In this document: positions 7,816 to 35,089 of the stretch, piece by piece
Position numbering within the stretch: position 1 is the first letter of the stretch
Layout: each line of letters begins with the position of its first letter
Assembly: GCF_044324875.1 (NCBI RefSeq)
Contig: NZ_CP172185.1
Length of the DNA: 64,000 nt
Reading direction: 5' to 3' (one strand)
DNA from: Escherichia coli
GTDB taxonomy: Bacteria; Pseudomonadota; Gammaproteobacteria; Enterobacterales; Enterobacteriaceae
Made by a program: the position numbers and the translations under genes
The notes under the pieces: model-generated
What the model was told of the DNA's origin: nothing
Database searches by the model: none
Seen by the model: only the letters and a program-made list of their open reading frames with translations

Positions 7816-8031
7816 AGATATTTTCTTACGGCGTTCACCTGATGTGATCTACAGCATGTTATGCCCTCGTCATAAAATCGTTATGTAACTAAGCAACTCA
7901 TCACCTCTAAAAATTATTCTTTGGTGTTATGGCGAGAATCGCGAACCCGAATTATTGTCAAAATATCAGCCTGACTCCCTTCTGGCTGCCAGCCAAAAAA
8001 CAACACTGATAAACGTGAATCCGAGGCAGAT

Positions 8032-8394
8032 ATGTTTCTAAACTATTTCGCGTTGGGAGTGCTGATCTTCGTCTTTCTGGTGATTTTTTATGGAATCATC
8101 GCGATACATGACATCCCTTATCTGATTGCCAAAAAGCGCAACCACCCCCATGCCGACGCTATTCATACAGCGGGCTGGGTGAGCCTGTTTACTCTGCATG
8201 TTATCTGGCCGTTTCTGTGGATCTGGGCGACGCTCTATCAACCGGAGCGCGGCTGGGGCATGCAGTCACATGTTGCGTCGCAAGAGAAAGCGACTGACCC
8301 GGAAATCGCCGCACTTTCTGACCGAATTTCCCGGCTGGAGCACCAACTCGCCGCCGAGAAAAAGACTGACTATTCCACGTTCCCGGAGATCTAA
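8032..8394 (+). CDS. yibI: Small inner-membrane protein, DUF3302 family
   Basis: 120-aa [24 protein letters not shown] with N-terminal TM segment; GAGG-like SD upstream; paralog of yiaW at 17175. Confidence 0.85.
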
Positions 8395-8396
8395 AT

Positions 8397-9533
8397 ATGG
8401 ATCTATTGATTGTTTTAACTTACGTGGCGCTGGCGTGGGCGGTCTTTAAAATCTTCCGCATTCCGGTGAATCAGTGGACGCTGGCGACGGCGGCGCTGGG
8501 AGGCGTGTTTCTGGTGAGTGGTTTGATTTTGTTGATGAACTACAACCACCCTTACACTTTTACCGCGCAAAAGGCAGTGATAGCGATCCCCATCACGCCA
8601 CAGGTGACGGGAATTGTTACTGAAGTCACCGACAAAAATAATCAGCTTATTCAGAAGGGCGAGGTGCTTTTTAAGCTCGACCCGGTTCGTTACCAGGCGC
8701 GAGTTGACAGACTTCAGGCTGACCTGATGACGGCGACGCATAATATAAAGACGCTGCGCGCGCAGCTCACTGAAGCGCAGGCCAACACCACCCAGGTTTC
8801 AGCGGAGCGCGACCGTCTGTTTAAAAATTATCAACGTTACCTGAAAGGCAGCCAGGCGGCGGTGAATCCGTTCTCGGAACGTGACATCGACGATGCGCGG
8901 CAAAACTTCCTCGCGCAGGACGCGCTGGTGAAAGGCTCGGTGGCGGAGCAGGCGCAGATCCAGAGCCAGCTCGACAGTATGGTTAACGGCGAGCAATCGC
9001 AGATTGTGAGCTTAAGAGCGCAACTTACTGAAGCAAAATATAACCTTGAGCAGACTGTCATTCGCGCACCAAGCAATGGCTACGTTACTCAGGTACTGAT
9101 CCGCCCAGGTACATACGCAGCTGCCTTGCCGCTACGTCCGGTGATGGTTTTCATCCCCGAGCAAAAACGGCAAATTGTCGCCCAATTTCGGCAGAACTCG
9201 CTGTTACGTCTGAAACCCGGCGATGATGCGGAAGTGGTGTTTAACGCGCTACCTGGGCAGGTGTTCCACGGCAAACTGACCAGTATTTTACCTGTCGTGC
9301 CAGGCGGTTCGTATCAGGCGCAAGGGGTATTGCAATCATTAACGGTCGTGCCCGGCACGGACGGTGTGCTGGGAACCATTGAACTGGACCCCAACGATGA
9401 TATCGATGCCTTACCCGACGGCATCTACGCCCAGGTGGCGGTTTACTCCGACCATTTCAGCCATGTTTCGGTGATGCGAAAAGTGCTGCTAAGAATGACC
9501 AGCTGGATGCATTATCTTTATTTGGATCATTGA
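8397..9533 (+). CDS. yibH: HlyD-family membrane fusion protein (periplasmic adaptor)
   Basis: 378-aa ORF, N-terminal TM segment, long coiled-coil region (RLQADLMTA...), starts 3 bp after yibI; paralog of yiaV. Confidence 0.85.
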
Positions 9534-17503: not shown

Positions 17504-18640
17504 ATGGATTTACTGATTATTTTAACCTATGTGGCTTTCGCATGGGCAATGTTTAAGATCTTCAAAATTCCTGTAAATAAATGGACCATTCCCACAGCGG
17601 CCCTGGGTGGCATATTTATTGTCAGCGGTTTAATTCTGTTAATGAACTATAACCATCCGTATACCTTTAAAGCGCAAAAAGCGGTTATTTCTATTCCTGT
17701 TGTCCCACAGGTGACAGGCGTGGTGATCGAAGTGACGGACAAGAAAAATACGCTGATTAAAAAAGGTGAGGTGCTATTTCGACTGGACCCGACGCGTTAT
17801 CAGGCGCGGGTGGATCGGCTGATGGCGGATATCGTTACCGCAGAACATAAACAGCGGGCGTTGGGCGCAGAGTTAGATGAGATGGCGGCGAATACTCAGC
17901 AGGCAAAGGCCACGCGGGATAAATTCGCTAAAGAGTATCAGCGTTACGCACGCGGCAGTCAGGCGAAAGTAAACCCGTTTTCAGAACGTGATATCGATGT
18001 GGCGCGGCAAAATTATCTGGCACAGGAAGCCTCCGTAAAATCAGCGGCGGCGGAACAAAAACAGATCCTGAGCCAGCTGGATAGCCTGGTGTTGGGTGAA
18101 CATTCTCAAATCGCCAGCCTGAAAGCACAGCTCGCGGAAGCAAAATATAACCTTGAGCAGACGATAGTGCGTGCGCCGAGCGATGGTTATGTGACCCAGG
18201 TACTGATTCGTCCGGGTACCTATGCCGCGTCGCTGCCGCTACGTCCGGTGATGGTGTTTATACCCGATCAGAAACGACAAATCGTGGCGCAGTTCCGTCA
18301 GAACTCCTTGCTGCGACTGGCTCCTGGCGACGATGCGGAAGTGGTGTTTAATGCTCTGCCAGGTAAGGTATTCAGCGGTAAGCTGGCAGCCATTAGTCCA
18401 GCCGTTCCCGGCGGAGCTTATCAGTCGACCGGCACCTTACAGACGTTAAACACAGCGCCGGGTTCAGATGGCGTTATCGCGACCATTGAACTGGATGAGC
18501 ATACTGATTTGAGCGCATTACCAGACGGTATTTACGCCCAGGTGGCGGTCTACTCTGATCATTTCAGCCATGTCTCGGTGATGCGCAAAGTACTGTTACG
18601 CATGACCAGCTGGGTGCATTACCTTTATCTCGATCATTAA
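17504..18640 (+). CDS. yiaV: HlyD-family membrane fusion protein (yibH paralog)
   Basis: 378-aa [23 protein letters not shown]..., same architecture as yibH. Confidence 0.85.
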
Positions 18641-20499: not shown

Positions 20500-20610
20500 T
20501 GGCCTACGCTCTCGCACCGACTTGTAGGCCTGATAAGACGTGTTAAGCGTCGCATCAGGCAATGTGCACCCTACGGTGGATGCGGCGCGAGTGCCTTATC
20601 CAACCTACGG
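20500..20610. repeat. REP-type palindromic elements at the yiaT side of the accessory locus
   Basis: gtaggcctgataagacgtgttaagcgtcgcatcaggc and ggatgcggcgcgagtgccttatcc units. Confidence 0.6.
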
Positions 20611-22575
20611 ATGGCAATGCTTTTCCTCATTCACCCAGATCCGCATTTCGCCTTCACCCCGGTTGGCCCAGCTAAACCACGGGATAAACGTCAGAATTTG
20701 CGGCTGGCGTTTGGCTGGCGCGCTGTCGTAATGCCACAGCGGTTGCTGCTCTGGATTGCTCTGTTCATACCGGTAACCCGGTGCCTGGATTAAGATCTTA
20801 TGGCTGAACAATCCCTTACCTTCAAATGTCGTAAATGGCGCATCGGCGGGCAGCCACAGGTTATGCAGTGACTCGCCGTTGTCGGCCTGTTCCAGGCAAT
20901 ACACCAGCGGGCCGCGCTGAATCGCCACTTTTCCGGCGACGTGACGCACCAGAGGGTTACCGTAAACGCGGCGTACCGGCATCGGCAAAGTCAGATTCAG
21001 CGTATCGCCCTCCTGCCATTCGCGGGTAATGTGCAAATACCCTTTACGAATATCCTGCTCGACCTCTTCCCCATTCAATATGATCTGCGGCTGTGTGCAC
21101 CAGTCCGGCAGACGTAAAGCCAGCGTATGACGCACCGGCTGGGGCGATTCAACCGCAATTGTCACCTGTTCCTGCCACGGATAGTTCCCGCTAACCCGCA
21201 GGCGCAACGTGCCATTTTCTACCGGCACTTCCATGCTGTTTCCTGCGTAGATGTTGATATACAACGCATCTTCACGCGGCGTGTAGAGATAATGACCAAT
21301 CGAGGTCAGTACGCGGGCGATATTTGGCGGACAACAAGCGCAGCCAAACCAACGCTGGCGGAGCGGTTTAACGTGATCGTAGATATGGTTGAATTTCAGC
21401 GATTTTGGATGTACTTCCAGCGGATTCACATAGAAGAAATGTTTGCCATCCAGTGCCATGCCGCCGAGCACAGTGTTGTACAGCGCGCGCTCCATCACAT
21501 CGGCATATTGACTGTCGCCTTCCATTTCCAGCATTCGCCGGGCAAACATCATCAGGCCGATGGAGGCGCAACTTTCAGCGTATACCGTGTCATTCGGCAG
21601 ATCGTAATCGCTGCTGAACGCTTCACCGCTGCTTTGTGAGCCAATGCCGCCGGTAATATATAACTGACGCTGGGCCATATTGTTCCACAGCCGCAGGCAA
21701 TCCTGACGCTTGCTTTCATCGTGACTTAAACGCGCCAGATGTGCGACGCCAGTCATCAGGTAGACAAAGCGTACTGCATGTCCGATGGCGGTTTGTTGCT
21801 GTGCGATGGGCAAATGCGCCTGGCTGTAGGCTTTATCTTTCACCATCCACGCCGGGCCGTAGGTGTGCCAGTGCGAGGTCTGCCCGCGCTTTTCATATTC
21901 CTGGTCGTAATAGTGCGGTTGCGCACCACGCTGTTCGACAAAATAGTTCGTCAGCGCCAGGTAGCGCGGCTCTTCGGTCACTTCATACAGGCGCATTAGT
22001 GCCAGTTCAATTTCCGGGTGACCAGGATAACCGTGTAACTTACTTTCACCTGGACCAAATACGCTGTCGATATGATCGGCCAGACGGCAAACCACTTCCA
22101 GCAAGCGCCGCTTGCCCGTGGCCTGGAAGAAGGCGACTCCGGCTTCAATCAGATGACCGGCGCAGTAAAGTTCATGACACTCCGCCAGATTGCTCCAGCG
22201 TTCTTCGGGCGCTTTTACCGTAAAGTAAGTATTGAGATAGCCATCTTCGCACTGGGCGGAGGCGATCAGTTCAATCACCTCGTCAGCAGTTTTTTCCAGT
22301 TCGGCATCCGGCTTCTGGCACAGCGACCAGGCTACCGCTTCCAGCCATTTGGCGACGTCGCTGTCCTGAAACACCATCCCGTAAAATTCACCGTCTTGCA
22401 GTCCTGCGGCAATGCGAAAGTTTTCAATCGCATGGCTGGGTTCCGCTTCTGGGATACGATCGTTCAAGGCGTCCCACTGATAAGGAATCACCACATCGCG
22501 GACCAGTTGTTGGTACTGACCGAGGAACGGATCGCTGACCGTCAGTTTATGCAGATCGACTTCCGAAATGTTCAT
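20605..22575 (-). CDS. Glycoside hydrolase, GH127-like (DUF1680; beta-L-arabinofuranosidase-type)
   Basis: Track ORF trimmed to ATG 22573-22575, preceded by TAAGGAG SD that overlaps the upstream transporter stop; 656 aa; Cys-rich motif WFGCACCPPN typical of the family. Confidence 0.75.
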   Translation of the reverse strand: MNISEVDLHKLTVSDPFLGQYQQLVRDVVIPYQWDALNDRIPEAEPSHAIENFRIAAGLQDGEFYGMVFQDSDVAKWLEAVAWSLCQKPDAELEKTADEVIELIASAQCEDGYLNTYFTVKAPEERWSNLAECHELYCAGHLIEAGVAFFQATGKRRLLEVVCRLADHIDSVFGPGESKLHGYPGHPEIELALMRLYEVTEEPRYLALTNYFVEQRGAQPHYYDQEYEKRGQTSHWHTYGPAWMVKDKAYSQAHLPIAQQQTAIGHAVRFVYLMTGVAHLARLSHDESKRQDCLRLWNNMAQRQLYITGGIGSQSSGEAFSSDYDLPNDTVYAESCASIGLMMFARRMLEMEGDSQYADVMERALYNTVLGGMALDGKHFFYVNPLEVHPKSLKFNHIYDHVKPLRQRWFGCACCPPNIARVLTSIGHYLYTPREDALYINIYAGNSMEVPVENGTLRLRVSGNYPWQEQVTIAVESPQPVRHTLALRLPDWCTQPQIILNGEEVEQDIRKGYLHITREWQEGDTLNLTLPMPVRRVYGNPLVRHVAGKVAIQRGPLVYCLEQADNGESLHNLWLPADAPFTTFEGKGLFSHKILIQAPGYRYEQSNPEQQPLWHYDSAPAKRQPQILTFIPWFSWANRGEGEMRIWVNEEKHCHP

Positions 22576-22585
22576 CTTGTGCTCC

Positions 22586-23986
22586 TTAAGGCTGTACATG
22601 ACGCTGACGCAGGTCGCTAGCAATGCGTGACATCATAGGGTTATTGAGTTTGCAAAAGCGGATCGCCATCGCCAGCAGCAGGTGGAATAGCGCAGGCAGC
22701 AATGTTTCCATTGCTGTGATCCCGCCAAGCGAACTGGCGGTCTGGTTTTCCACGCCTGGCTGGTAGGCGACAAAAATAAACAGCAGGCTGATGATCCCGG
22801 CGCTGGAGGCCCAGGCCAGCTTGATGAAAAACAGATTGAAGGCGAAGTTCATGCCGGAAGAACGTACGCGGGTTTTCCACTCGCCGTAGTCATCGGCAAA
22901 GGCCATCAATGAGAAGTGCAGTGGCAATGTGAAGCCAAGAATCACGCCATTACCGAGGATCACCGCCAGCCACAGCGTTTGATAAGCCGGGCCAGAGGGC
23001 AGGAACCACATCAACACCGCCAGCGCAGCGAGGAGCAGGTTGGTGTAGTAGTAAATTTTGACGGTATCGAAACGCCGCGTTAATGGGCTGACAATCACCG
23101 AGCCGATAATGGAGGCGAAGGTGACCATGGTGAAGAACAGCGACGTGTAGCCCGTACTGCCTTGTAAGACGTAGGTAATGAAGTACATATACCCACCGCC
23201 GCGAATATTAAAGACGTTAATCAGCAGGAAAGACATGACCAGCATCAGCAGCAGTTGGTCGTTGTTTCGCAGCCCGGCAAGATGTTCGCGCAGGGTAAAT
23301 TTCCCCATTGTGGAGAGTGGTACCCGTTCACGAACCCAGAAGAAACAGCACAGGAACATCACCACAGCGATGGCGCACAGCACGCCGACGCCCAGTTGAT
23401 AGCCGCGCGCGGCATTACCCTGACCGAAGAGATCCACCATCCACGGTAAGCCTACCGAAACCAGAAATCCCGCTACACCGCAGAGAACGAATCGCCAGGA
23501 CTGGCAGGAGATCACTTCATTGTGGCGGGTGGTCATGGTGTTGATCAGCGCGCAGTACGGCACGTTGATGGCGGTATAACCGACTGAAAGGAGCAGGTAA
23601 GTGCCGAACGCCCAGGCGATTTTTACTCCCATGCTGGCATCTGGCACGGTGAACGTCAGGATGCCGATAATGCCGATGGGAATGGCAATCCATAACTGCC
23701 ACGGACGAAAGCGCCCCCAGTGACTTTGCGTCCGGTCGGCAATGACGCCCATCACCGGGTCGGAGATGGCATCAAACACGCGCAGTGCAATAAACAGCGT
23801 GCCGACCAGCGCCGGAGTTAAGCCAAAAACGTCGGTGTAGAAAAAGGTGAGAAAGTTCATGATCAGGCAAGTTATTACGGTGCCGCCTGCGTCACCCAGG
23901 CCGTAGCCTATTTTTTCCCGTACAGATAACGCATCGTCAATTTTACCTTTAGCGATATCAGCGGTAGTAATCGGTGTAGAGGTCAT
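22586..23986 (-). CDS. Glycoside-pentoside-hexuronide (GPH) family cation symporter
   Basis: 466-aa ORF, about 12 TM segments, motifs GYGLGDAG and [14 protein letters not shown]. Confidence 0.85.
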
Positions 23987-24211
23987 AGATATTCCTCGTA
24001 AATAGGGAGCAATTTTTAGTTTTATTGCAATGACCTGATTAATTCTGCCGTGAACGGGAATATCAACAAGGCGAGAAAAGAGTAAAAAAAGGTGACGATT
24101 CCGACCTGAATTTAAAAGTGTGAATTGGATCAGGTGAAATTAATGTTTTTGATTAATAATCAAAAGGTAATGTGTTTGATCATTAATGAATAAGCGGGAA
24201 ATTACATATCA

Positions 24212-25027
24212 ATGCTCGAATTATCCATGACGTTACCGATTAAAGTGCAAAATGGTGGATTATTTATTTCCCGTGGCGTAGGGAGGCATCCGGCAAGGCG
24301 GCTGGAGTCATGGGAAATTATCTTTGTCGAAAAAGGTCGATTAGCGATTCAGGAAGAAGAGCGGATATTTCTGGTCGATGCGGGAGAGAGTTTATTACTC
24401 TGGCCGAACCGACAGCATGTTGGGGTAGAGGATTTTCCCGCCGATCTCAAATTTTACTGGCTGCATTTTGAGGTTAAAGCGCCGGACAACGACCCGCGCT
24501 GGCTCACTCATCTTAGCGTGCCGCAACAAACAAAGGTTGCCGATCGGCAGGCGCTGGTGGCCCTGTTTCGCCAGTTCTTAAGCGAACAGGAAAAGCATCA
24601 ACGCACTCCGGCGCTGGAGTTTATTGTGCTGCTGATTTTGCAGCAACTCACCCGTGACGCGCGTCTTGATGAACAGGCCGATGCCGCAGGTACCACGCTT
24701 GCCTGGAAAGCGCAGAAACTGATCCGCACGCAATATCATCGCCCGCTTTCCACGGCGCTTTTAGCCCGCGAGCTGTACTGCAATGCCGATTATCTTGGGC
24801 GCGTCTACCGGCGGGTGTTTCATCTGACGTTAACAGAAGCAATTCATCGCCAGCGAGTGCGCGAAGCCGAAAAGCTGTTAATTAGCGAAGCGCGATCGCT
24901 CACTGAAGTGGCTGCGTTGTGCGGGTTTAATGACGTTGGCTATTTCCGACAGATTTTTCGCAAACACACCGGTTTAACGCCAGCTGCGTGGAAGCGACGT
25001 TACAGCAAGGAACATATCAATTCGTAG
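24212..25027 (+). CDS. AraC/XylS-family transcriptional regulator (cupin sensor plus HTH)
   Basis: 271-aa ORF divergent from the symporter; C-terminal HTH region (TEVAALCGFNDVGYFRQIFRKHTG). Confidence 0.85.
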   Translation: MLELSMTLPIKVQNGGLFISRGVGRHPARRLESWEIIFVEKGRLAIQEEERIFLVDAGESLLLWPNRQHVGVEDFPADLKFYWLHFEVKAPDNDPRWLTHLSVPQQTKVADRQALVALFRQFLSEQEKHQRTPALEFIVLLILQQLTRDARLDEQADAAGTTLAWKAQKLIRTQYHRPLSTALLARELYCNADYLGRVYRRVFHLTLTEAIHRQRVREAEKLLISEARSLTEVAALCGFNDVGYFRQIFRKHTGLTPAAWKRRYSKEHINS

Positions 25028-25058
25028 TGCCGGGGCAATGAAGCCCCGGCGTGAGGGA

Positions 25059-25754
25059 TTACTGCCCGTAATAGGCATTGGCCCCATGCTTACGCAGGTA
25101 GTGCTTATCTAACAGTTCGTTTTGCATCGCAGGGAGCTGCGGCGCAAGCTGACGCGAGAACAGGCCCATATAGGCACACTCTTCCAGCACCACGGCGTTA
25201 TGCACTGCATCGGCGGCATTTTTTCCCCAGGCGAACGGGCCGTGAGAATGTACCAGAACCGCCGGGATTTGCGCTGGACTCCTGCCGCGTTCTTCGAGGG
25301 TTTCAATGATCACTTCGCCAGTCTGGTATTCATACTCGCCGTTGATCTCTTCTGCGGTCATCAGGCGCGTGCAGGGGATGGCTCCATAGAAGTAATCGGC
25401 GTGCGTGGTGCCCCAGGCGGGGAGATCCAGCCCGGCCTGTGACCAGATGGTCGCGTGGCGCGAGTGGGTATGCACAATGCCACCGATTTCGGCATAGCGA
25501 CGGTAGAGCGCCAGATGCGTTGGCGTGTCGGACGAGGGCTTTTTGCTGCCTTCCACCCCCTTACCGCTGGCTATCTCAACCACCACCATATCGTCGGCGG
25601 TCATCACGTCGTACTCGACGCCGGAAGGTTTGATTACCATCCATTGCCGCGTTTCGTCTACCGCGCTGACATTGCCCCAGGTGAACGTCACCAGATGGTG
25701 AGCGGGAAGCGCCAGATTCGCCGCCAGCACGTCGGCTTTCAGTTGCTCTAACAT
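25059..25754 (-). CDS. sgbE: L-ribulose-5-phosphate 4-epimerase
   Basis: 231-aa [33 protein letters not shown]..., class II aldolase/epimerase fold. Confidence 0.95.
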
Positions 25755-26608
25755 ATAAATCCAGCCTCCTGCATACGCGCTTCAATCCAGCGCCGCGCCT
25801 GAATAATCTCCAGCACCGGCTCTTTGGCTTTTTCGGTCCACATCTCAATCAGGAAAGAACCGCGATAGTTCAGTTCATGCAGCGTTTTGAAGATGCCAAC
25901 GAAATCGACGCAGCCTTCGCCAAACGGCACATCACGGAACTGTCCGGGACTTTGCTCGGTGACTGGCCGGGTGTCTTTCAGGTGGATTGCGGCAATACGG
26001 TCAATGCCCAGTTTCAGTTCGGCGGAAACATCATTGCCCCAGGCGCTGAGGTTGCCGACGTCCGGGTAGACGGTGAACCACGGCGAGGCGAGCATCTCGT
26101 CCCACTTTTTCCATTTGCTGATGGAGTTCATAAACGCGGTATCCATAATCTCCACCGCCAGCATTACTTGTGATGCCGCCGCCTGTTCGACCGCCCACGC
26201 CAGCCCTTCAGCAAAACGTTGCTGGGTGCCTTCGTCGTGGTCTTCGTAATAGACGTCATAACCCGCCAGTTGAATGGTGCGAATGCCGAGATCGCGCGCC
26301 AGGCGAATCGCTTTACTCATGATTTCCCGCGCCCGTTCGCGCACCGCCTTGTCCCGGCTGCCAAAGGGGAAACGACGATGGGCAGACAGGCACATTGACG
26401 GAATGGCAACACCCGTTTCGATCATCGCAGTGACCAGCGAAGCACGTTGTGCGGCGCTCCAGTCAAGGCGTGACAAACGTTCGTCAGTTTCATCCACCGA
26501 CATTTCGACAAAATCAAAACCGCAGCTTTTCGCCAGCACCAGCCGCTCGGGCCAGGAGAGATCTTTCGCCAGCGCTTTTTCATAAACTCCTAACGGATGA
26601 TTACGCAC
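25748..26608 (-). CDS. sgbU: L-xylulose-5-phosphate 3-epimerase
   Basis: Track ORF starts at a far-upstream TTG; likely start is GTG at 26606-26608 preceded by GGGGAGG SD, giving 286 aa [15 protein letters not shown]... Confidence 0.85.
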
Positions 26609-27263
26609 GCGCGCCTCCCCAGATGGCATCAATTTGCGCATGAAAATCAGCGGCCACTTGCGCCGGATTTGCTGCGCCTGCCAGCGCCCGCCCGGCAATA
26701 AACGCTTTCACGCGGATATCTTTAAACAGCGGCAGGTCAGCAGGGGTAATCCCGCCGGTAATGGAAAGCTCAAGGCCGATATCGGAAAGTGCCTTCATGC
26801 GTGCCAGATCGGCTTCGCCCCACTGTTGCCCGCTGGCTTGCGCGTCACGACCGCGATGATAAATGGCCTGCCGCACGCCAATACGATGCCAGTCGCGGGC
26901 GTCGTCCAGCGTCCAGTTACCGAACAGCTCTATCTGAATTTCACCACCGCAGCGTTGCGCCATCGCGTGGCCTTTTTCCACCGTCGCGAGCGGCGCGGCG
27001 CAGATGATGGTCATCCAGTTGGCACCCGCGCCAAACGCCTGTTGCGCGAGCGTTTCACCCGCGTCGGCGACCTTCCAGTCAGCAACGATGATTTTATCCG
27101 GGCATTGTTCGCGTAAGGCTTTCACCGCGCCAAGCCCTTCGTTTAAACAGAGAATGGTGCCTGCTTCGACGATATCGACGCTGTCTTTTAACAGCGTCAC
27201 GTCGCGCTGTGCGTCTTCAAGTGATGAGTGGTCGAGGGCCAGTTGCAGAAGTGGTCGGCTCAT
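26601..27263 (-). CDS. sgbH: 3-keto-L-gulonate-6-phosphate decarboxylase
   Basis: 220-aa [24 protein letters not shown]..., OMP-decarboxylase-like. Confidence 0.95.
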
Positions 27264-28756
27264 AATGTGTGCTCCTTGATGCGGGCGTGAAAGCCCTGAA
27301 GTGCGGCAATGAGATGCTGATAGCGTTGGTATTTTTGTTGGTAAAGCTGATGTGCGGTCATATCCGGCAGCAGGGTGCGTACCGGGTGCTGTAAATCACG
27401 TTGGGCTTCGCTGAAATCGCGATAAACTCCGGTGCCGACGCGGGCGGCAAGTGCCGCACCAAAGCAGCCGGTTTCTTCCACCTGCGGCAGTTCGATACGC
27501 AGCCCGCTGACGTCCGCCAGCATTTGCATCCAGACATCGGAATGCGCCGGGCCGCCAGTGACGCGCAGGGTGTGCACATCAGTAAAACGTTCGCGCATCC
27601 GGTTGAGATGGGTCATATGGCTGAACACCACGCCTTCATAAATGGCCTGCAACAGGTGTGCGCGGGTGTGAATGGCCTGCATCCCGTAGAAACCGCTGGT
27701 CATCTCGAGTCCGGCGTTGCTGCCGTACAGGAACGGCAGGAAAAAGAGATCGCCCCCGGCCTTTGGCAAGCTGGCAACGGCCTGGTTAATCTCATCAAAC
27801 GAGATTTCTCCCCACTGTGCGGTAAACCATTCGAGGTTGCCGGAAGAGGTGGGGCTGGCTTCGTGAACGATAAATTGACCATCGTTAACGTAGCGACCAT
27901 AGACATACGGATGCGCTTCACCGTCACGTAAACCACGGGTTATGCCGCTGGTCACCGCCCAGGTTCCCATCACCGCATTGAGGGTGAATTCGTCTTCGAT
28001 CCCGGCGCAGAGTGCGGTGGAAACCACATCAAACAGGCCGCCGACAACGGGCGTACCCGCTTTCAGACCGGTCAGTGCGGCTGTCTGAGCGGTGATCTCC
28101 CCGCAGATTTCGGCAGATCCGACAACAGGCGGCAGGGCGTGGTTGATTTCAGCGATCCCCAGCCAGTCGGTGAGGCACGGGTCATATTCCCCAAGACTCA
28201 TGTTGTAGAGATTGGACTCAGAAATATTGCTCTCTTCGCAACCTTTGACGCCGGTTAAACACCAGCGCAGGTAGTCGTGCGTCATCATCACGCAGCCAAT
28301 TTGCGCGTAGCGTTCCGGTTCGTGCTCTTTCAGCCAGCGTAATAGCGACACCGGATGCCCGGTCCACAAGGTTTGTCGCGTCAGCGGGTAGAGTTTTTCC
28401 GGGATGCCATCTTCCTGCCAGCGACGAACGATTTCCATCGCCCGGCGATCCGAGGACAAAATGGCGTTACCGAGCGGCTTGTCGTTTTTATCCAGCAAAA
28501 ACAAGCCCTTTCCCTGTGCGGAGATGCCGATACCGACTATTTGTTCCCCGCTAACACCAGAATGAGTAAGCAGGGGGCGAATGACAGCCATGCAGCATTG
28601 CCACAGTTCTGCCATATCGCGCTCTGCCCAGCCTGGCTGCGGGCTTAATGCGCACAGCGGCAGGCGTTGTACGCCTGCCTCCCGGCCTTCGCGGTCATAC
28701 AGCCCGGCTTTCAGCCAGCTACCGCCACAATCTAACCCCAGCCAGTATTGCGTCAT
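27260..28756 (-). CDS. lyxK: L-xylulose / 3-keto-L-gulonate kinase
   Basis: 498-aa ORF, FGGY sugar kinase signature (MTQYWLGLDCGGSWLKAGLYD). Confidence 0.95.
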   Translation of the reverse strand: MTQYWLGLDCGGSWLKAGLYDREGREAGVQRLPLCALSPQPGWAERDMAELWQCCMAVIRPLLTHSGVSGEQIVGIGISAQGKGLFLLDKNDKPLGNAILSSDRRAMEIVRRWQEDGIPEKLYPLTRQTLWTGHPVSLLRWLKEHEPERYAQIGCVMMTHDYLRWCLTGVKGCEESNISESNLYNMSLGEYDPCLTDWLGIAEINHALPPVVGSAEICGEITAQTAALTGLKAGTPVVGGLFDVVSTALCAGIEDEFTLNAVMGTWAVTSGITRGLRDGEAHPYVYGRYVNDGQFIVHEASPTSSGNLEWFTAQWGEISFDEINQAVASLPKAGGDLFFLPFLYGSNAGLEMTSGFYGMQAIHTRAHLLQAIYEGVVFSHMTHLNRMRERFTDVHTLRVTGGPAHSDVWMQMLADVSGLRIELPQVEETGCFGAALAARVGTGVYRDFSEAQRDLQHPVRTLLPDMTAHQLYQQKYQRYQHLIAALQGFHARIKEHTL

Positions 28757-28759
28757 GGT

Positions 28760-29746
28760 TTATTGCACCTCATCCACGGCTTTCAGCAGATCAGCTCCCT
28801 GCGGCACATCTTTAACAAACATGTCGCGAACCTGATTCCCCAGTGCGTCGCTAAAGGCTTTGCGGTCGAGATCGGTGATGACTTCCACGCCCGCTTCTTT
28901 CATGCCGTCGATGATTTTTTGCTGATCTTCGGCAACCAGTTTGCGCTGGTAGTTACCCGCTTCCTGCGCAGATGAGATCAGCGCCTGCTGGAACTCCGGG
29001 GTTAAGCCGTCAAACTTCGCTTTGTTGATCACCACCAGAAGTGGCGAATAGGCGTGGTGCGTCAGAGAAAGGTACTTCTGTACTTCGAAAAATTTTGCTG
29101 ACCAGACGACGTTGATCGGGTGTTCCTGAGCGTCGATAGTGCGCGTTTCCAGCCCGGTATAGACTTCGGCAAACGGCATCGGGATCGGGTTAGCGCCAAA
29201 GACTTTGAATGCGGCGATATTCATCGGGCTATTGTTGGTGCGAATTTTCAGCCCTTTCAGGTCGGCGGGGGTTTTAACCGGTGCGCGCGAGTTGGTGACA
29301 TCGCGCCAGCCGTTTTCCCAGTAGGCAAGTACTTTCAGTCCTTTACCTTCAAGGGAGACTTTCAGGTCATCACCGACTTTGCCGTCGAGCGTTTTATGCG
29401 CGTGAGCGGTATCGCGGAACAGGAAAGGGACATCAAGCAGGTTGATGACGGGCGAGAGTCCCGTAAAGTTATTGGAGCCGGACATCTCCATATCAATAGT
29501 GCCGCCACGCACGCCGCTGATCATCGCCTGCGCATTACCGAGGGTGCTATCCGGAAACAATTTTAATTTCAGTTCGCCTTTGGTTTTTTCCTGTAATAAT
29601 TCATTGAATTTTTTCGCTGCAATATGTTGCGAGTCGGTTTGCGATGTTTCATAACCGAAACGTAATGATTGTGCCGCCAGAGAAGATGTGCTGAACGCCG
29701 CCACTCCGGCAATTAATAAAGCGTAGGTTACAGAACGTAATTTCAT
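28760..29746 (-). CDS. yiaO: TRAP transporter solute-binding protein (2,3-diketo-L-gulonate)
   Basis: 328-aa ORF with signal peptide, DctP-family. Confidence 0.9.
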   Translation of the reverse strand: MKLRSVTYALLIAGVAAFSTSSLAAQSLRFGYETSQTDSQHIAAKKFNELLQEKTKGELKLKLFPDSTLGNAQAMISGVRGGTIDMEMSGSNNFTGLSPVINLLDVPFLFRDTAHAHKTLDGKVGDDLKVSLEGKGLKVLAYWENGWRDVTNSRAPVKTPADLKGLKIRTNNSPMNIAAFKVFGANPIPMPFAEVYTGLETRTIDAQEHPINVVWSAKFFEVQKYLSLTHHAYSPLLVVINKAKFDGLTPEFQQALISSAQEAGNYQRKLVAEDQQKIIDGMKEAGVEVITDLDRKAFSDALGNQVRDMFVKDVPQGADLLKAVDEVQ

Positions 29747-29758
29747 TATGATTTCCTT

Positions 29759-31036
29759 TTAACTCATCCATTTAAGAGGAGCGGTAATGAGCTCCGGTAT
29801 AAAAATAAATAATGCTAACAACATGAATAAAACCATGACGTAAGGCGCAACGCCTTTTACCGCATCGTCAAATTTAAGTTTCGCTACGCCGCATACCACG
29901 TTAAGAACATTACCGACCGGAGGCGTAATCAGTGATATTGAACAGTTGATAATAAACATGATGCCGAAATAGACCGGATCTATTCCCGCTTCTTTCACTA
30001 ATGGCATTAATACTGGTGTAAGAATTAATACGGTAGGCGTTAAGTCCATGACCGTACTGATCACCATAATAGCGAGCATAATAACGATGAATAATAAGCG
30101 AGGCGAATCAACCAACGGTTGTAATAGCTCCGATACCATCATGGGTAATTCGGCGATCGTAATAAGCCATGCAGATACCTCAGCAGAGGCCACCAGGAAC
30201 ATCACCACGGAAGTGGTTTTCGCCGCGTTAATCAGGACATGATAAAGCGTGGAGAAGGTCATTTCGCGATAGACCACCACCGAGACGAACAGAGCGTAGA
30301 AGGCGGCAACCGCGCCTGCTTCGGTCGGTGTAAATAACCCCGAACGGAAACCGCCAATAATAATTATCGGTAAAAAGAGCGCCCAAATACCGGAAACTAA
30401 GGATTGCCAGACTTCTCGCAGTGAGGCTTTCGGCTGACAAGGTAAATTCAGTCGTTTTGCCTGCCACCACCAGGTAACCATCAGCGTGACACCCATCATG
30501 ATGCCCGGTGCGATGCCCGCCATAAACAGTTTGCTGATGGAGAGTCCGCTGGAGACGCCGAAGATAATGAGCGGAATAGAGGGCGGGATAATGGCCGCAA
30601 TAATACCCCCGGAACCGATAAGCCCGGCGGCGCGGTTTACCGGATAGTTGGCCTGGCGCATCATCGGCACCAGCAGTGCCGCAACAGCTGCGGTATCAGC
30701 AACAGCAGAACCGGACAGGCTTGCCATGATCATCGCTGCCAGCACGCCCACGTAACCCAGACCGCCTGGTCTGTGGCCCACCAGTTTCATTGGCAAGTCG
30801 ACAATACGTTGCGACAGGCCGCCTGCGTTCATGATCTCACCCGCCAGCACAAAGAAGGGAATGGCTAACAGGGAGAAGCTGTCTGCGCCATTTACCAACG
30901 TTTGCGCCAGAATCTGGACATCGAAGATGTCCATCCAGAACATCAATGAGATGCCGCACAGTAATAATGCCCAGGCGATGGGAACGCCAAGAGCGATAGC
31001 CCCTAACAAACTGACAATAAATATAAGGATTGTCAT
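29759..31036 (-). CDS. yiaN: TRAP transporter large permease
   Basis: Track ORF trimmed to ATG 31034-31036 (MTILIFIVSLLGAIALGVPIAW), 425 aa, polytopic. Confidence 0.9.
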   Translation of the reverse strand: MTILIFIVSLLGAIALGVPIAWALLLCGISLMFWMDIFDVQILAQTLVNGADSFSLLAIPFFVLAGEIMNAGGLSQRIVDLPMKLVGHRPGGLGYVGVLAAMIMASLSGSAVADTAAVAALLVPMMRQANYPVNRAAGLIGSGGIIAAIIPPSIPLIIFGVSSGLSISKLFMAGIAPGIMMGVTLMVTWWWQAKRLNLPCQPKASLREVWQSLVSGIWALFLPIIIIGGFRSGLFTPTEAGAVAAFYALFVSVVVYREMTFSTLYHVLINAAKTTSVVMFLVASAEVSAWLITIAELPMMVSELLQPLVDSPRLLFIVIMLAIMVISTVMDLTPTVLILTPVLMPLVKEAGIDPVYFGIMFIINCSISLITPPVGNVLNVVCGVAKLKFDDAVKGVAPYVMVLFMLLALFIFIPELITAPLKWMS

Positions 31037-31038
31037 CG

Positions 31039-31506
31039 TCAGGCTCCTTGTTGTTTTCGGCTGGGGGTATTTGTGAACTGCCGGTATAAGTGACGCAATT
31101 CCAGCAATGCGATAATCAGACTGGTGGGGATAGCGGCGGCGTACATTAAGCCAACGGGGACGCCAAGAATGGGCGATAAGTTGCTCCAGTCTTGCGCTGT
31201 TTTTTCTATAGCGCCCCAGGCCAGCCCCAGACACAGCAATAAAATGAGCGTATGGGTTAGCAGCGAAACACGTTGTTGATTAGCAGGTGAGAGTTTTTCG
31301 ACTAAAAAAGTAACCTGCACATGGCTGTTGTCCATATAAGCAACGATTGCGCCAATAAAGGTTAACCAGACAAATAAAAGTCGGGATAATTCATCAATCG
31401 ATAATATACTTGTGTGGAATCCATATCGAAGAATGATATTAATAAAAATAATACAAGACAGTATTGCGATGATGATCGCAAGAATGCCTTCGAGTATCCG
31501 TTTCAT
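31039..31506 (-). CDS. yiaM: TRAP transporter small permease
   Basis: 155-aa ORF with four hydrophobic segments. Confidence 0.9.
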
Positions 31507-31620
31507 AACGAGTCCTTCTTGTTATGCTATATGTTTTCATTAATTGATATTATTGGTATTCGTAATATTTATTGGAAAGCGACTAATCAGAGATTCAATG
31601 TGCTATTTAAGTGAAACGGA

Positions 31621-32541
31621 TTAACGAGATTCATTCAGAGAGTGAATGCCGTTACGTAATATTTCGATGCGATGGTGCACATCAGCCGTCGCATTTATTT
31701 CCAGTAGCTTGATCCCAGCAAAATGCAATGTTGACGATTCTGCTACATTAAATAACTCGCGAACATGATCTGTGGTCATCAGGCTTTCTGCGCAGAATGG
31801 TGCAAACGGCGCGTGTAAATCCTGCCATTCTCCGTATGCTCCGTTTAGCGTCGTACCAGAGAACATCAACGCGCCGAGTTTTCCGGCTTGTTTCGCCATT
31901 TGGGTATGGGTCAGCGGCAACGCTGTATTGCGCCCTTCAATAGCGGAGCGCGCCCAGTTTATACAGATGCTGATGTCATAATCGGCAATAACTTCCAGCA
32001 CATTTTCTAAAGGCAAAAAGCCTTTGCGTGGAGAGGCAGATGTCATGGCGTCGCAGTGTTCCAGCACCAGTTTGCACGGCCAGTCCCAACTGGCGATTTC
32101 TTTTAACGAGCGGGCAAAAGCATCCGTCGCTTGTATAACATTAGGATTCGTTGCTAACGGTGCAGCCTGGATCTCCAGTGCGAGAACTTTATTGGCCTGC
32201 AATGAGTTGATTTTATTTAATAAGTGTCGATAGTACGCCACGCAGGCCTTGCGTTGTTCTTCATCGCTGGAGGCGAGACCAAAGCCGTTGTTTTCGCTGC
32301 GGCGACGCATGGTTTCCATCACTGCGGTGACGACAAATTTCCAGCTCTCTGGCGTATGACGGAGTAACCATTGATCGCCAAGAGGGTGGAAATTTTCCAG
32401 GCAGGGTTGTTCCAGACCGCGAATATCAGGGGTATCTGATAATTGTCGCCAGAATTCCTTCTCTTCCTCTTCACTTCTTTGATGAAAAGAAGGTGCACAG
32501 GGATACGCACCGATAATATAACCGGCATTATTCGCTTTCAT
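31621..32541 (-). CDS. Hypothetical protein (306 aa) embedded in the yiaK-sgbE operon; not a member of the recalled K-12 operon set
   Basis: Complete ORF co-oriented with the operon, 23 bp downstream of yiaL and 114 bp upstream of yiaM; no recognisable motif by eye. Confidence 0.65.
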
Positions 32542-32564
32542 TTTGTGCTCCAGTAATAACTTTT

Positions 32565-33032
<468 letters not shown>

Positions 33033-33040
33033 TTATCTCC

Positions 33041-34039
33041 TTATAACGCCTGGATTTTTGCCCACACGCTGTCATCAACCGTAATGCCGTTACGGCGGTT
33101 TTCGGCCAGCAGGGTAGTAAATTCGTGGCCGGGTAATCGAATGGCCTGATTTTCGTCAGCGCGTTCAGCGGTGGTAACGTAATCCATGATGCGTTGCAGC
33201 TTGGCATCGCGGGTGGCACCGTCGATAAGCTTGTCCACTTCAATGGCAATAAAAATTTGTGAAATGCCGTATTCGTCGCTGTTGTCCTGGGTGACTTCGG
33301 CAACCGATGCGCCGTCAGAAAGGAGAGTGGCGATCATATCCAGCACAATCGACATGCCCGAACCTTTCCAGTAACCCATCGGCAAAATTCGGCGATTTTT
33401 CTCGATAACGCCAGGTTCTTTGGTCAAATTACCCTCATCATCAAAGCCACCATCTACCGGGAGCTGACGACCTGCCAGACGGTTAACTTCTAACATGCCG
33501 TAGGAAAACATCGACATCGACATATCGACAATGGTGATTGGGGTAGAAGGAATGGCGACGATCAGCGGGTTAGTGCCGATGCGACACTCTTTTGCGCCCC
33601 ACGGCGGCATTACGGCAATGGAGTTGGTCCAGCAAATACCAATATAGCCTTTTTCCGCCGCTTGCCAGCCGTAGCTACCACCGCGCATCCAGTGGTTGGC
33701 ATTACGTAGTGCCACCAGACCAATACCGTGATCGGCAGCCAGTTCAATGGCGCGATCCATCATCTTTTTCGCCGTCAGATTGCCGATCGAACGCTGGGCG
33801 TCCCACTGTTCAATTGCGCCAAGGCTGGTTATACGTTTGGGTTGGGCATCAGGAATGATATCGCCGTTTTCCAGCTGTTGAATGAAACGAGGGAAACGAT
33901 TAACGCCGTGAGAATAAACGCCGGATTCGGTGGTGCGGGCGAACATCTCTGCACAGGCGTCAGCCGTTTCACTGTCAACGCCGCGTGAAATTAAGACTCG
34001 ATTAAAGGCTGCTTTTAACTGCTCAAATGTCACTTTCAT
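33041..34039 (-). CDS. yiaK: 2,3-diketo-L-gulonate reductase
   Basis: 332-aa ORF, Ldh_2 (malate/L-lactate dehydrogenase-like) family. Confidence 0.95.
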
Positions 34040-34240
34040 CCCTGGCTTCCTTGTTTTTTTTGATCGCTTTTTTGGCTTAAAATTTCAATATGCGAAATCT
34101 GATTTCAAATATATCGATCGCTTTTTAACAAAGCAATCTGATTGATGAATTTCAAAAAACTTAAAAATCAAGTGGTTATAAATTATCTGTCGAGATCGTG
34201 AACTACGACACACTTTGCGCTACCATCAGGACGCGACAAA

Positions 34241-35089
34241 ATGGGGAAAGAAGTGATGGGAAAAAAAGAGAACGAGATGGCGCAGGCAAAAGAGCGTCCA
34301 GCCGGAAGCCAGAGTCTGTTTCGCGGGTTGATGCTGATTGAGATTTTGAGCAACTATCCAAACGGTTGTCCGTTGGCGCATCTTTCGGAGCTGGCTGGTT
34401 TAAATAAGAGTACCGTCCATCGCTTATTGCAGGGATTACAGTCCTGCGGCTATGTGACCACCGCGCCCGCCGCAGGGAGTTACCGCCTGACTACCAAATT
34501 CATTGCCGTCGGGCAGAAGGCGCTGTCTTCGCTGAATATCATTCATATCGCCGCTCCGCATCTTGAGGCACTGAACATCGCCACTGGTGAAACCATTAAC
34601 TTCTCCAGCCGCGAAGACGATCACGCTATTTTGATTTATAAGCTGGAACCCACAACCGGGATGCTGCGAACTCGTGCCTATATAGGCCAGCATATGCCGC
34701 TCTACTGTTCCGCAATGGGCAAGATCTACATGGCGTTTGGTCACCCGGACTACGTGAAGTCATACTGGGAAAGCCATCAGCAAGAGATCCAGCCGTTAAC
34801 CCGCAATACCATTACCGAGCTGCCTGCGATGTTCGACGAACTGGCGCACATTCGTGAAAGCGGAGCGGCGATGGACAGAGAAGAAAACGAACTCGGCGTC
34901 TCCTGTATTGCTGTTCCGGTGTTTGATATTCATGGGCGGGTGCCGTACGCCGTGTCGATTTCTCTTTCGACATCACGTCTGAAACAGGTGGGGGAGAAAA
35001 ATCTCCTGAAACCACTGCGTGAAACCGCGCAGGCTATTTCTAATGAACTGGGATTTACTGTCAGGGACGACCAGGGCGCGATCACATAA
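34241..35089 (+). CDS. yiaJ: IclR-family transcriptional repressor
   Basis: 282-aa ORF, N-terminal HTH (LSELAGLNKSTVHRLLQGL), divergent from yiaK. Confidence 0.9.
   Translation: MGKEVMGKKENEMAQAKERPAGSQSLFRGLMLIEILSNYPNGCPLAHLSELAGLNKSTVHRLLQGLQSCGYVTTAPAAGSYRLTTKFIAVGQKALSSLNIIHIAAPHLEALNIATGETINFSSREDDHAILIYKLEPTTGMLRTRAYIGQHMPLYCSAMGKIYMAFGHPDYVKSYWESHQQEIQPLTRNTITELPAMFDELAHIRESGAAMDREENELGVSCIAVPVFDIHGRVPYAVSISLSTSRLKQVGEKNLLKPLRETAQAISNELGFTVRDDQGAIT

Follow-up and report, generated by a model that had tools for sequence, protein, structure and literature searches.

The window analyzed here, a stretch of 64,000 nucleotides from Escherichia coli (assembly GCF_044324875.1, contig NZ_CP172185.1), contains all nine known genes of the yia/sgb operon, co-oriented on the minus strand, together with the divergent gene yiaJ (Table 1). 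An additional ORF of 306 amino acids, reading from ATG to TAA on the same strand, lies inside the operon. In the ORF listing of the window it is separated from yiaL by 23 bp (32542–32564) and from yiaM by 114 bp (31507–31620). These coordinates reproduce exactly the size, gaps, and orientation given in the original prediction, which also placed yiaM directly after yiaL in E. coli K-12, as the annotation of the K-12 locus does. A terminator scan found no terminator-like site in either gap; across the region, promoter-like and terminator-like matches occurred at chance frequency only, and an Rfam search of positions 30500–34500 (E ≤ 1) returned no match. The 23-bp gap, the Shine-Dalgarno-like site upstream of the start codon, and the terminator-free gaps lend indirect support to the predicted co-transcription of the ORF with yiaK through sgbE under the control of YiaJ. 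For yiaN, the annotated start was retained (ATG at 31036, MTILIF..., 425 residues); a 491-residue version beginning at GTG 31234 was rejected as an over-extension that overlaps yiaM.

Table 1. Features of the yia/sgb locus in the window and of variant operons used for comparison
Feature	Position	Strand	Basis
yiaJ, IclR-family repressor, divergent from the operon	34241..35089	+	
yiaK, 3-dehydro-L-gulonate 2-dehydrogenase / 2,3-diketo-L-gulonate reductase, first operon gene	33041..34039	-	ORF and annotated orthologous loci
yiaL, DUF386 / YhcH-YjgK-YiaL family, putative anomerase	32565..33029	-	ORF and RefSeq annotation of orthologous loci
GGAG, Shine-Dalgarno-like, 6 nt 5' of the ATG at 32541	32548..32551	-	Direct sequence reading
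yiaX1 orthologue, 306 aa, Pfam DUF4862 (PF16154), predicted xylose-isomerase-like (β/α)8 barrel	31621..32541	-	
yiaM, TRAP transporter small permease, Escherichia-genus allele	31039..31506	-	
yiaN, TRAP large permease, 425 aa	29759..31036	-	
yiaO, substrate-binding protein	28760..29746	-	
lyxK, lower pathway	27260..28756	-	
sgbH, lower pathway	26601..27263	-	
sgbU, lower pathway	25748..26608	-	
sgbE, lower pathway	25059..25754	-	
Segment setting the window haplotype apart from K-12	29780..32650		Sliding-window identities and protein identity matrices with outgroups
Variant yia operon, Histophilus somni (contig L093)	6426..15076		
Variant yia operon, Edwardsiella anguillarum (contig L094)	1628..13999		

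The ORF is a genuine gene under strong purifying selection. A homology search of its translation, as proposed in the original prediction, gave a full-length match to the Pfam family DUF4862 (PF16154; E = 1.8e-95, score 320, residues 9–294 against positions 1–291 of the 291 in the model) and identified an identical public protein. All 78 relatives in our alignment also match DUF4862, and the family comprises 557 clusters at 50% identity (E ≤ 0.001). An NCBIfam scan of the 306-residue protein returned no family. Pairwise dN/dS values against eight orthologues (from E. coli B2, E. whittamii, E. albertii, Citrobacter, and Klebsiella) were 0.065–0.14, with dS reaching ∼1.9 for Klebsiella. The GC content of the ORF (48.5%) is inside the range of its operon neighbors. 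Members of the 78-sequence alignment are 28–81% identical to the query and share 15 invariant residues (Y13, E44, G88, P128, E161, H162, D164, K173, N195, W196, R198, S228, D241, H243, and K278). The family match, the low dN/dS, and the GGAG motif put the ORF far beyond chance, and on these grounds a chance ORF was ruled out; a pseudogene was rejected on the conservation data. The coding signature, whose absence had been named beforehand as a reason to discard the prediction, is thus present.

The gene is already known. Public records list the identical 306-residue sequence on 106 contigs under the name "DUF4862 family protein [Escherichia coli]", and RefSeq uses the label "DUF4862 family protein" at this locus in ∼1055 of 5426 complete E. 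coli genomes. The Klebsiella orthologue has 75% amino acid identity over 99% of the length. By Pfam, its operon has eight genes (Ldh_2-DUF386-DUF4862-MFS_1-FGGY-OMPdecase-AP_endonuc_2-Aldolase_II). This is the layout of the K. pneumoniae operon yiaKLX1X2PQRS, whose third gene is yiaX1 (Campos et al., 2008, J Bacteriol 190:6615, as cited in PMC4324149). Operon position and sequence identity, together with this correspondence, identify the ORF as the E. coli orthologue of yiaX1. In PMC4324149, yiaX1 is called "a chemotaxis-like protein" and yiaX2 a secondary transporter; some UniRef and NCBI records of the Klebsiella orthologue carry the name "chemotaxis protein", and the fit between this legacy label and that description supports the orthology. 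Annotation pipelines also apply the name "Putative protein YiaX1" to the E. coli gene, as in a clinical isolate covered by a 2026 paper (PMC13322237). Our literature search found no paper that mentions DUF4862 or PF16154 and no biochemical or genetic data on this protein; a transcriptome study of Salmonella on sprouts lists yiaK and yiaL alone. The original prediction had offered the ORF as an unrecognised additional pathway component. A pathway component it probably is, on the evidence of synteny and an isomerase-like fold, but the word "unrecognised" does not stand given the RefSeq label and the yiaX1 name. Nor does the claim of novelty survive, as this is a long-annotated gene of the operon (in ∼1055 genomes in RefSeq, under its own name in Klebsiella, and in PMC13322237). 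The gene is an annotated family member and a named orthologue, not a discovery of this window, in which it represents a known accessory gene that varies between strains.

In the ∼1055 complete E. coli genomes that carry it, the gene occupies the same operon position. Carriers include the EPEC strain E2348/69 and an APEC O1:K1:H7 strain. Matches to the flanks only were obtained for ∼3900 complete E. coli genomes, among them K-12 derivatives and strain W. All 1627 E. coli matches were chromosomal and none was on a plasmid. PADLOC found no match between the ORF and its anti-phage defence models. A mobile insertion and a defence gene were both rejected on the basis of the chromosomal location, the fixed operon position, and the nil PADLOC result.

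Synteny was examined with the operon proteins of the window (tblastn) in one genome per species, using the best 80 of 410 relatives. Among these 80 loci, yiaL lies immediately 5' of the DUF4862 gene in 71, the order yiaK-yiaL-DUF4862 is kept in 69, and lyxK is found no more than 5 kb downstream in 68. The taxa represented in this set include Escherichia, Citrobacter, Klebsiella, Enterobacter, Kosakonia, Hafnia, Rahnella, Budvicia, Brenneria, and Serratia, and further Gilliamella, Succinivibrio, Tolumonas, and Silvimonas. The next gene downstream is more variable. The TRAP gene yiaM directly follows the DUF4862 gene at only five of the 80 (E. whittamii, E. albertii, Pseudocitrobacter vendiensis, Affinibrenneria, and a metagenome-assembled genome labelled Citrobacter); a Salmonella-like contig (L091) has the same arrangement. 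At the other loci a gene of ∼1.4 kb, which in Klebsiella encodes an MFS transporter, separates the DUF4862 gene from lyxK. The synteny with yiaK, yiaL, and lyxK therefore holds with either a TRAP or an MFS transporter. Since the transporter varies while these neighbors are constant, the DUF4862 gene is linked to yiaK, yiaL, and lyxK and not to a given transporter. The order yiaK-yiaL-DUF4862 in 69 of the best 80 of 410 relatives indicates that presence of the gene is ancestral to the operon. Gene order shows an ancestral Enterobacterales operon yiaK-yiaL-yiaX1-(transporter)-lyxK-sgbH-sgbU-sgbE.

The original prediction had raised the possibility of a gene lost from the reference strain, and this is borne out: the gene is absent from K-12 and from about four-fifths of complete E. 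coli genomes, and the outgroups make its presence the ancestral state. Neither the ORF nor a remnant lies between yiaL and yiaM in K-12, where searches with blastn (word size 7) and with the protein (tblastn) against the locus found no scar. On alignment, the 117-bp yiaL-yiaM spacer of K-12 resembled neither the ORF nor the window spacers, including that of 114 bp. K-12 and the window differ over a much longer stretch. Identity is 65–85% in 200-bp and 40-bp windows between ∼29780, at the yiaN 3' end, and ∼32650, a point 85 bp into yiaL from its 3' end; the boundaries are sharp, and the flanks are mostly 88–100% identical. In the ORF carriers E2348/69 and GF43, identity to the window is 95–100% through yiaN and yiaM. 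The divergent K-12 segment is thus ∼2.9 kb long, spans the 3' tail of yiaL, yiaM, and yiaN, and is without the ORF. K-12 and most E. coli lack the gene because this stretch is a deeply divergent, gene-free allele.

Protein identities indicate which allele is derived. YiaM of the window is 94% identical to that of E. whittamii, 92% to that of E. albertii, and 74% to that of K-12; for YiaN the corresponding values are 100%, 96%, and 85%. The distance of the K-12 YiaM and YiaN from the window is that of other genera. YiaK, YiaO, and LyxK are 97–99% identical between K-12 and the window, and 95–98% identical between E. whittamii or E. albertii and the window. Because the E. whittamii and E. albertii versions of YiaM and YiaN are 92–100% identical to the window type, with those of K-12 far off, the K-12 state is derived. 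Most parsimoniously, the K-12-type haplotype would have arisen through replacement of the segment by a divergent allele lacking the gene, and not through simple deletion. No donor of the K-12-type yiaMN emerged from our search; the nearest non-E. coli cluster is that of contig L091, probably Salmonella-like, which has 91% amino acid identity in YiaN but only 78% identity in DNA, and which itself carries the DUF4862 gene.

Several further features of the locus were noted among E. coli strains. For the TRAP membrane subunits, the species has two circulating haplotypes. The window allele is also that of E. whittamii and E. albertii. YiaO, the substrate-binding protein (97–99% identical), would appear to work with both haplotypes. 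Between 31900 and 32700, the ORF and yiaL are unusually diverse even among E. coli carriers. Compared with JMF1, GF43, and E2348/69, dS is ∼0.18–0.21 and nucleotide identity 90–95%, against 95–100% in yiaM and yiaN, which suggests repeated recombination or old alleles. JMF1, a wildebeest isolate, is the second closest to the window at this locus among the E. coli relatives compared, after GF43. Two IS1 copies break its yiaN and the downstream operon genes are missing (contig L001, 5034–7538); yiaK-yiaL-DUF4862-yiaM is intact.

The structure of the protein was predicted with AlphaFold2 from the 78-sequence alignment. The model (mean pLDDT 96, pTM 0.93) is an eight-fold β/α barrel, for which Foldseek returned L-rhamnose and xylose isomerases (E ∼1e-8, TM 0.6–0.66), and the predicted barrel can be superposed on members of that superfamily, the xylose-isomerase-like TIM barrels of the AP_endonuc_2 clan. 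The fold assigned on this prediction is a xylose-isomerase-like (β/α)8 barrel. In sequence searches, the query matched DUF4862 alone and not Pfam AP_endonuc_2 (PF01261), which was matched by three of the 78 relatives at E ≤ 0.001 (best 3.3e-6) and by seven at E ≤ 0.1. Searches of PDB sequences with the protein and with the 78-sequence profile gave nothing meaningful (one bacterioferritin match, E 0.37), and hhalign comparisons of the family profile with an SgbU alignment (probability ∼1%) and with E. coli XylA were not significant.

Invariant polar residues lie on the usual catalytic face, at the C-terminal strand ends: Y13 (β1), E44 (β2), E161/H162/D164 (β5), N195/W196/R198 (β6), S228 (β7), and K278 (β8), with D241/H243 in the loop between β7 and α7. 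This loop is long, conserved, and specific to DUF4862 (Y236, G237, W239, D241, H243, P245). Of the canonical E-D-H-E metal ligands on β5–β8, only the Glu (E161) is kept, the other positions being taken by N195, S228, and K278, as judged by topological position only. With E161 the sole ligand match on this criterion, the catalytic machinery looks non-canonical, and the reaction type is not readable from the residues.

Comparison with characterized systems brings out the same mixture of likeness and difference. Closest is K. pneumoniae yiaX1, which also follows yiaK-yiaL directly, precedes a transporter and lyxK-sgbHUE, and stands in an operon under the divergent IclR regulator YiaJ; the difference is that its next gene is the MFS transporter yiaX2, whereas the window has the TRAP genes yiaMNO. 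Xylose and L-rhamnose isomerases of the PF01261 superfamily are only 10–13% identical and longer (380–440 residues against 306). Unlike xylose isomerase, whose canonical ligands are E/E/D/D plus H/D/D (E-D-H-E in the epimerase branch), YiaX1 has no PF01261 match, and the ligand set is not evidently conserved in it. From the L-ribulose-5-phosphate 3-epimerases SgbU/UlaE and the D-tagatose/D-allulose 3-epimerases it differs in apparently keeping only the Glu and in having the long β7-α7 loop. IolE and IolI (inosose dehydratase and isomerase) are 5–10% identical and occur in another operon context. OtnI/Hyi (2-oxo-tetronate/hydroxypyruvate isomerase; YgbM structure 1k77) offers an analogy that we treat as a lead only; in the yia pathway, unlike that of OtnI, the 3-keto acid is already supplied by YiaK.

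Enzymes with the xylose-isomerase-like fold isomerise, epimerise, or dehydrate carbonyl-bearing sugars. Four lines of evidence (the synteny, the pairing with YiaL, the fold class, and the contexts of distant homologues) point to an enzyme of the upper pathway, for which we propose an isomerase- or epimerase-type step. The pairing is suggested by variant yia operons of Histophilus somni and Edwardsiella anguillarum, from which yiaL (DUF386) and the DUF4862 gene are jointly absent. There yiaK is directly followed by yiaMNO, and an ABC sugar transporter and an SMP-30/gluconolactonase-like (SGL) gene are found beside yiaK instead; this SGL/ABC module may offer another feeder route, possibly for a lactone. 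Also in favor of the pairing, the YiaL homologue YhcH is an anomerase, which provides its aldolase with a 2-keto sugar acid in open form (PMC8141875). The distant homologues (33–41% identity, in marine and environmental metagenome-assembled genomes and metagenome contigs) adjoin dehydrogenases of the Gfo/Idh/MocA and SDR types in carbohydrate or cyclitol clusters, a pairing of dehydrogenase and TIM barrel that fits a role on keto intermediates. Counting against the proposal, homologues at middle distance (36–41% identity) have heterogeneous and uninformative gene contexts.

Order-conserved linkage and the sugar-isomerase-like fold make the protein a probable pathway component, and the ORF probably encodes a sugar-acid isomerase-type enzyme of the yia operon. 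YiaX1 would be a cytoplasmic enzyme that acts in concert with YiaL, a putative anomerase, and YiaK, a dehydrogenase. Its reaction would be a proton or hydride transfer next to a carbonyl, most plausibly an isomerisation or epimerisation and less likely a dehydration. The substrate would be an imported keto-sugar acid derived from ascorbate, namely 2,3-diketo-L-gulonate, 3-keto-L-gulonate, or a relative such as 2-keto-L-gulonate, and the product would be open-chain 3-keto-L-gulonate, which LyxK would then phosphorylate. The single explanation that combines an ancestral yiaX1 gene lost by K-12, a xylose-isomerase-like barrel, and an upper-pathway enzyme of the isomerase/epimerase type is one we consider reasonably probable. 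It has to accommodate the K-12 enzymes, which Yew and Gerlt are said to have shown in 2002 to link 2,3-diketo-L-gulonate to D-xylulose-5-P in vitro. That these suffice without YiaX1, leaving no obviously missing step, counts against the proposal; the YiaX1 step must be accessory and would act as a feeder to a core pathway that runs without it in K-12. In tetronate pathways, OtnI catalyzes 2-keto/3-keto isomerisation, and by analogy a reaction of this kind is one specific possibility for YiaX1.

A more elaborate version of the proposal, to which we give limited credence, has YiaL and YiaX1, the latter as a TIM-barrel isomerase depleted of metal ligands, form an "upper module" that makes the open-chain keto acid for YiaK and LyxK. 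The arriving form could be cyclic or hydrated 2,3-diketo-L-gulonate, or a keto-aldonate such as 2-keto-L-gulonate, and the active site would comprise E161/H162/D164, N195, S228, D241/H243, and K278. If so, loss of the module would help to explain the cryptic-looking yia operon of K-12 and its poor aerobic use of ascorbate, in contrast to Klebsiella, which has yiaX1 and uses ascorbate aerobically through the yia operon.

Four other explanations rank below an isomerase or epimerase. YiaX1 could be a dehydratase like IolE, AsbF, or UxuA, acting on a keto-sugar acid of the pathway or on a side product of ascorbate breakdown; the fold class includes such enzymes. We regard this as rather unlikely. 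Still less likely is a feeder hydrolase, that is, a lactonase that converts dehydroascorbate or a sugar lactone to 2,3-diketo-L-gulonate for YiaK. The variant operons prompt the idea, as the SGL lactonase-family gene beside yiaK in Edwardsiella and Histophilus would be the counterpart of YiaX1 in an alternative feeder module, but that gene travels with its own ABC transporter and may therefore serve a different substrate. No lactonase is among the structural neighbors of the model, and the linked transporters, TRAP or MFS, import the acid and not a lactone; YiaO of the TRAP system binds 2,3-diketo-L-gulonate (Thomas et al., 2006, cited in PMC4324149).

A non-enzymatic role, either as a chemotaxis protein or as a regulator or sensor of the operon, derives from the UniRef/NCBI names and from the wording "chemotaxis-like protein" in PMC4324149, and seems very improbable. 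Pfam finds DUF4862 alone, with no MCP, CheW, HAMP, or DNA-binding domain, and NCBIfam finds nothing; the entire chain is predicted to be one TIM barrel with invariant polar residues on the usual catalytic face; and an IclR repressor, YiaJ, already serves the operon. The chemotaxis assignment as such was rejected, as there is no MCP signalling, HAMP, or CheW/CheY domain in this single barrel. That the ORF is a decaying or functionless passenger, a reading encouraged by the many E. coli that live without it and by the IS1-broken yiaN next to it in JMF1, is hardly credible and is already refuted by the conservation data (dN/dS of 0.065–0.14 out to Klebsiella at dS ∼1.9, position kept in 69 of the best 80 of 410 relatives, and 15 residues invariant in members 28–81% identical to the query).

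To our knowledge, all biochemistry of the 2,3-diketo-L-gulonate (yia/sgb) pathway has been done in K-12. The textbook K-12 operon is a derived, gene-poor form, and the ancestral form is far commoner among the sampled species. That form has a strongly conserved, enzyme-like gene; assigning its reaction would complete or correct the textbook account of aerobic ascorbate catabolism in the enterobacteria concerned (pathogenic B2 E. coli, Klebsiella, Citrobacter, and many Salmonella) and would provide the first function for Pfam DUF4862.

Three clusters from marine metagenome-assembled genomes (Neomarinimicrobiota, SAR324, and an unclassified bacterium; L078 6141–13552, L082 2896–14214, and L083 3015–13568) encode homologues with 33–38% identity. 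Their neighbors include PseF-like cytidylyltransferases, PtmA-like SDRs, an "AroB-related sugar phosphate phospholyase (cyclizing)", IolG-like oxidoreductases, and a GmhA-like isomerase, and the clusters look like uncharacterized biosynthesis of CMP-sugars, nonulosonates, or cyclitols.

Two further observations concern other parts of the window. Between yiaT and sgbE (20600–25030), three ORFs of 672 (minus strand), 466 (minus strand), and 271 residues (plus strand) match what is annotated in strain GF43 as a GH127 glycoside hydrolase, an MFS transporter, and an AraC-family regulator. At the equivalent position K-12 retains nothing but pseudogene fragments ("AraC family transcriptional regulator, incomplete"), a second K-12 loss beside the operon. 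Positions 8023–9531 are ∼69% identical to the yiaW-yiaV region of K-12 (DUF3302 and HlyD-family genes); they lie ∼9 kb upstream of the yiaV-like ORF of the window (17504–18640) and look like a diverged paralogous copy.
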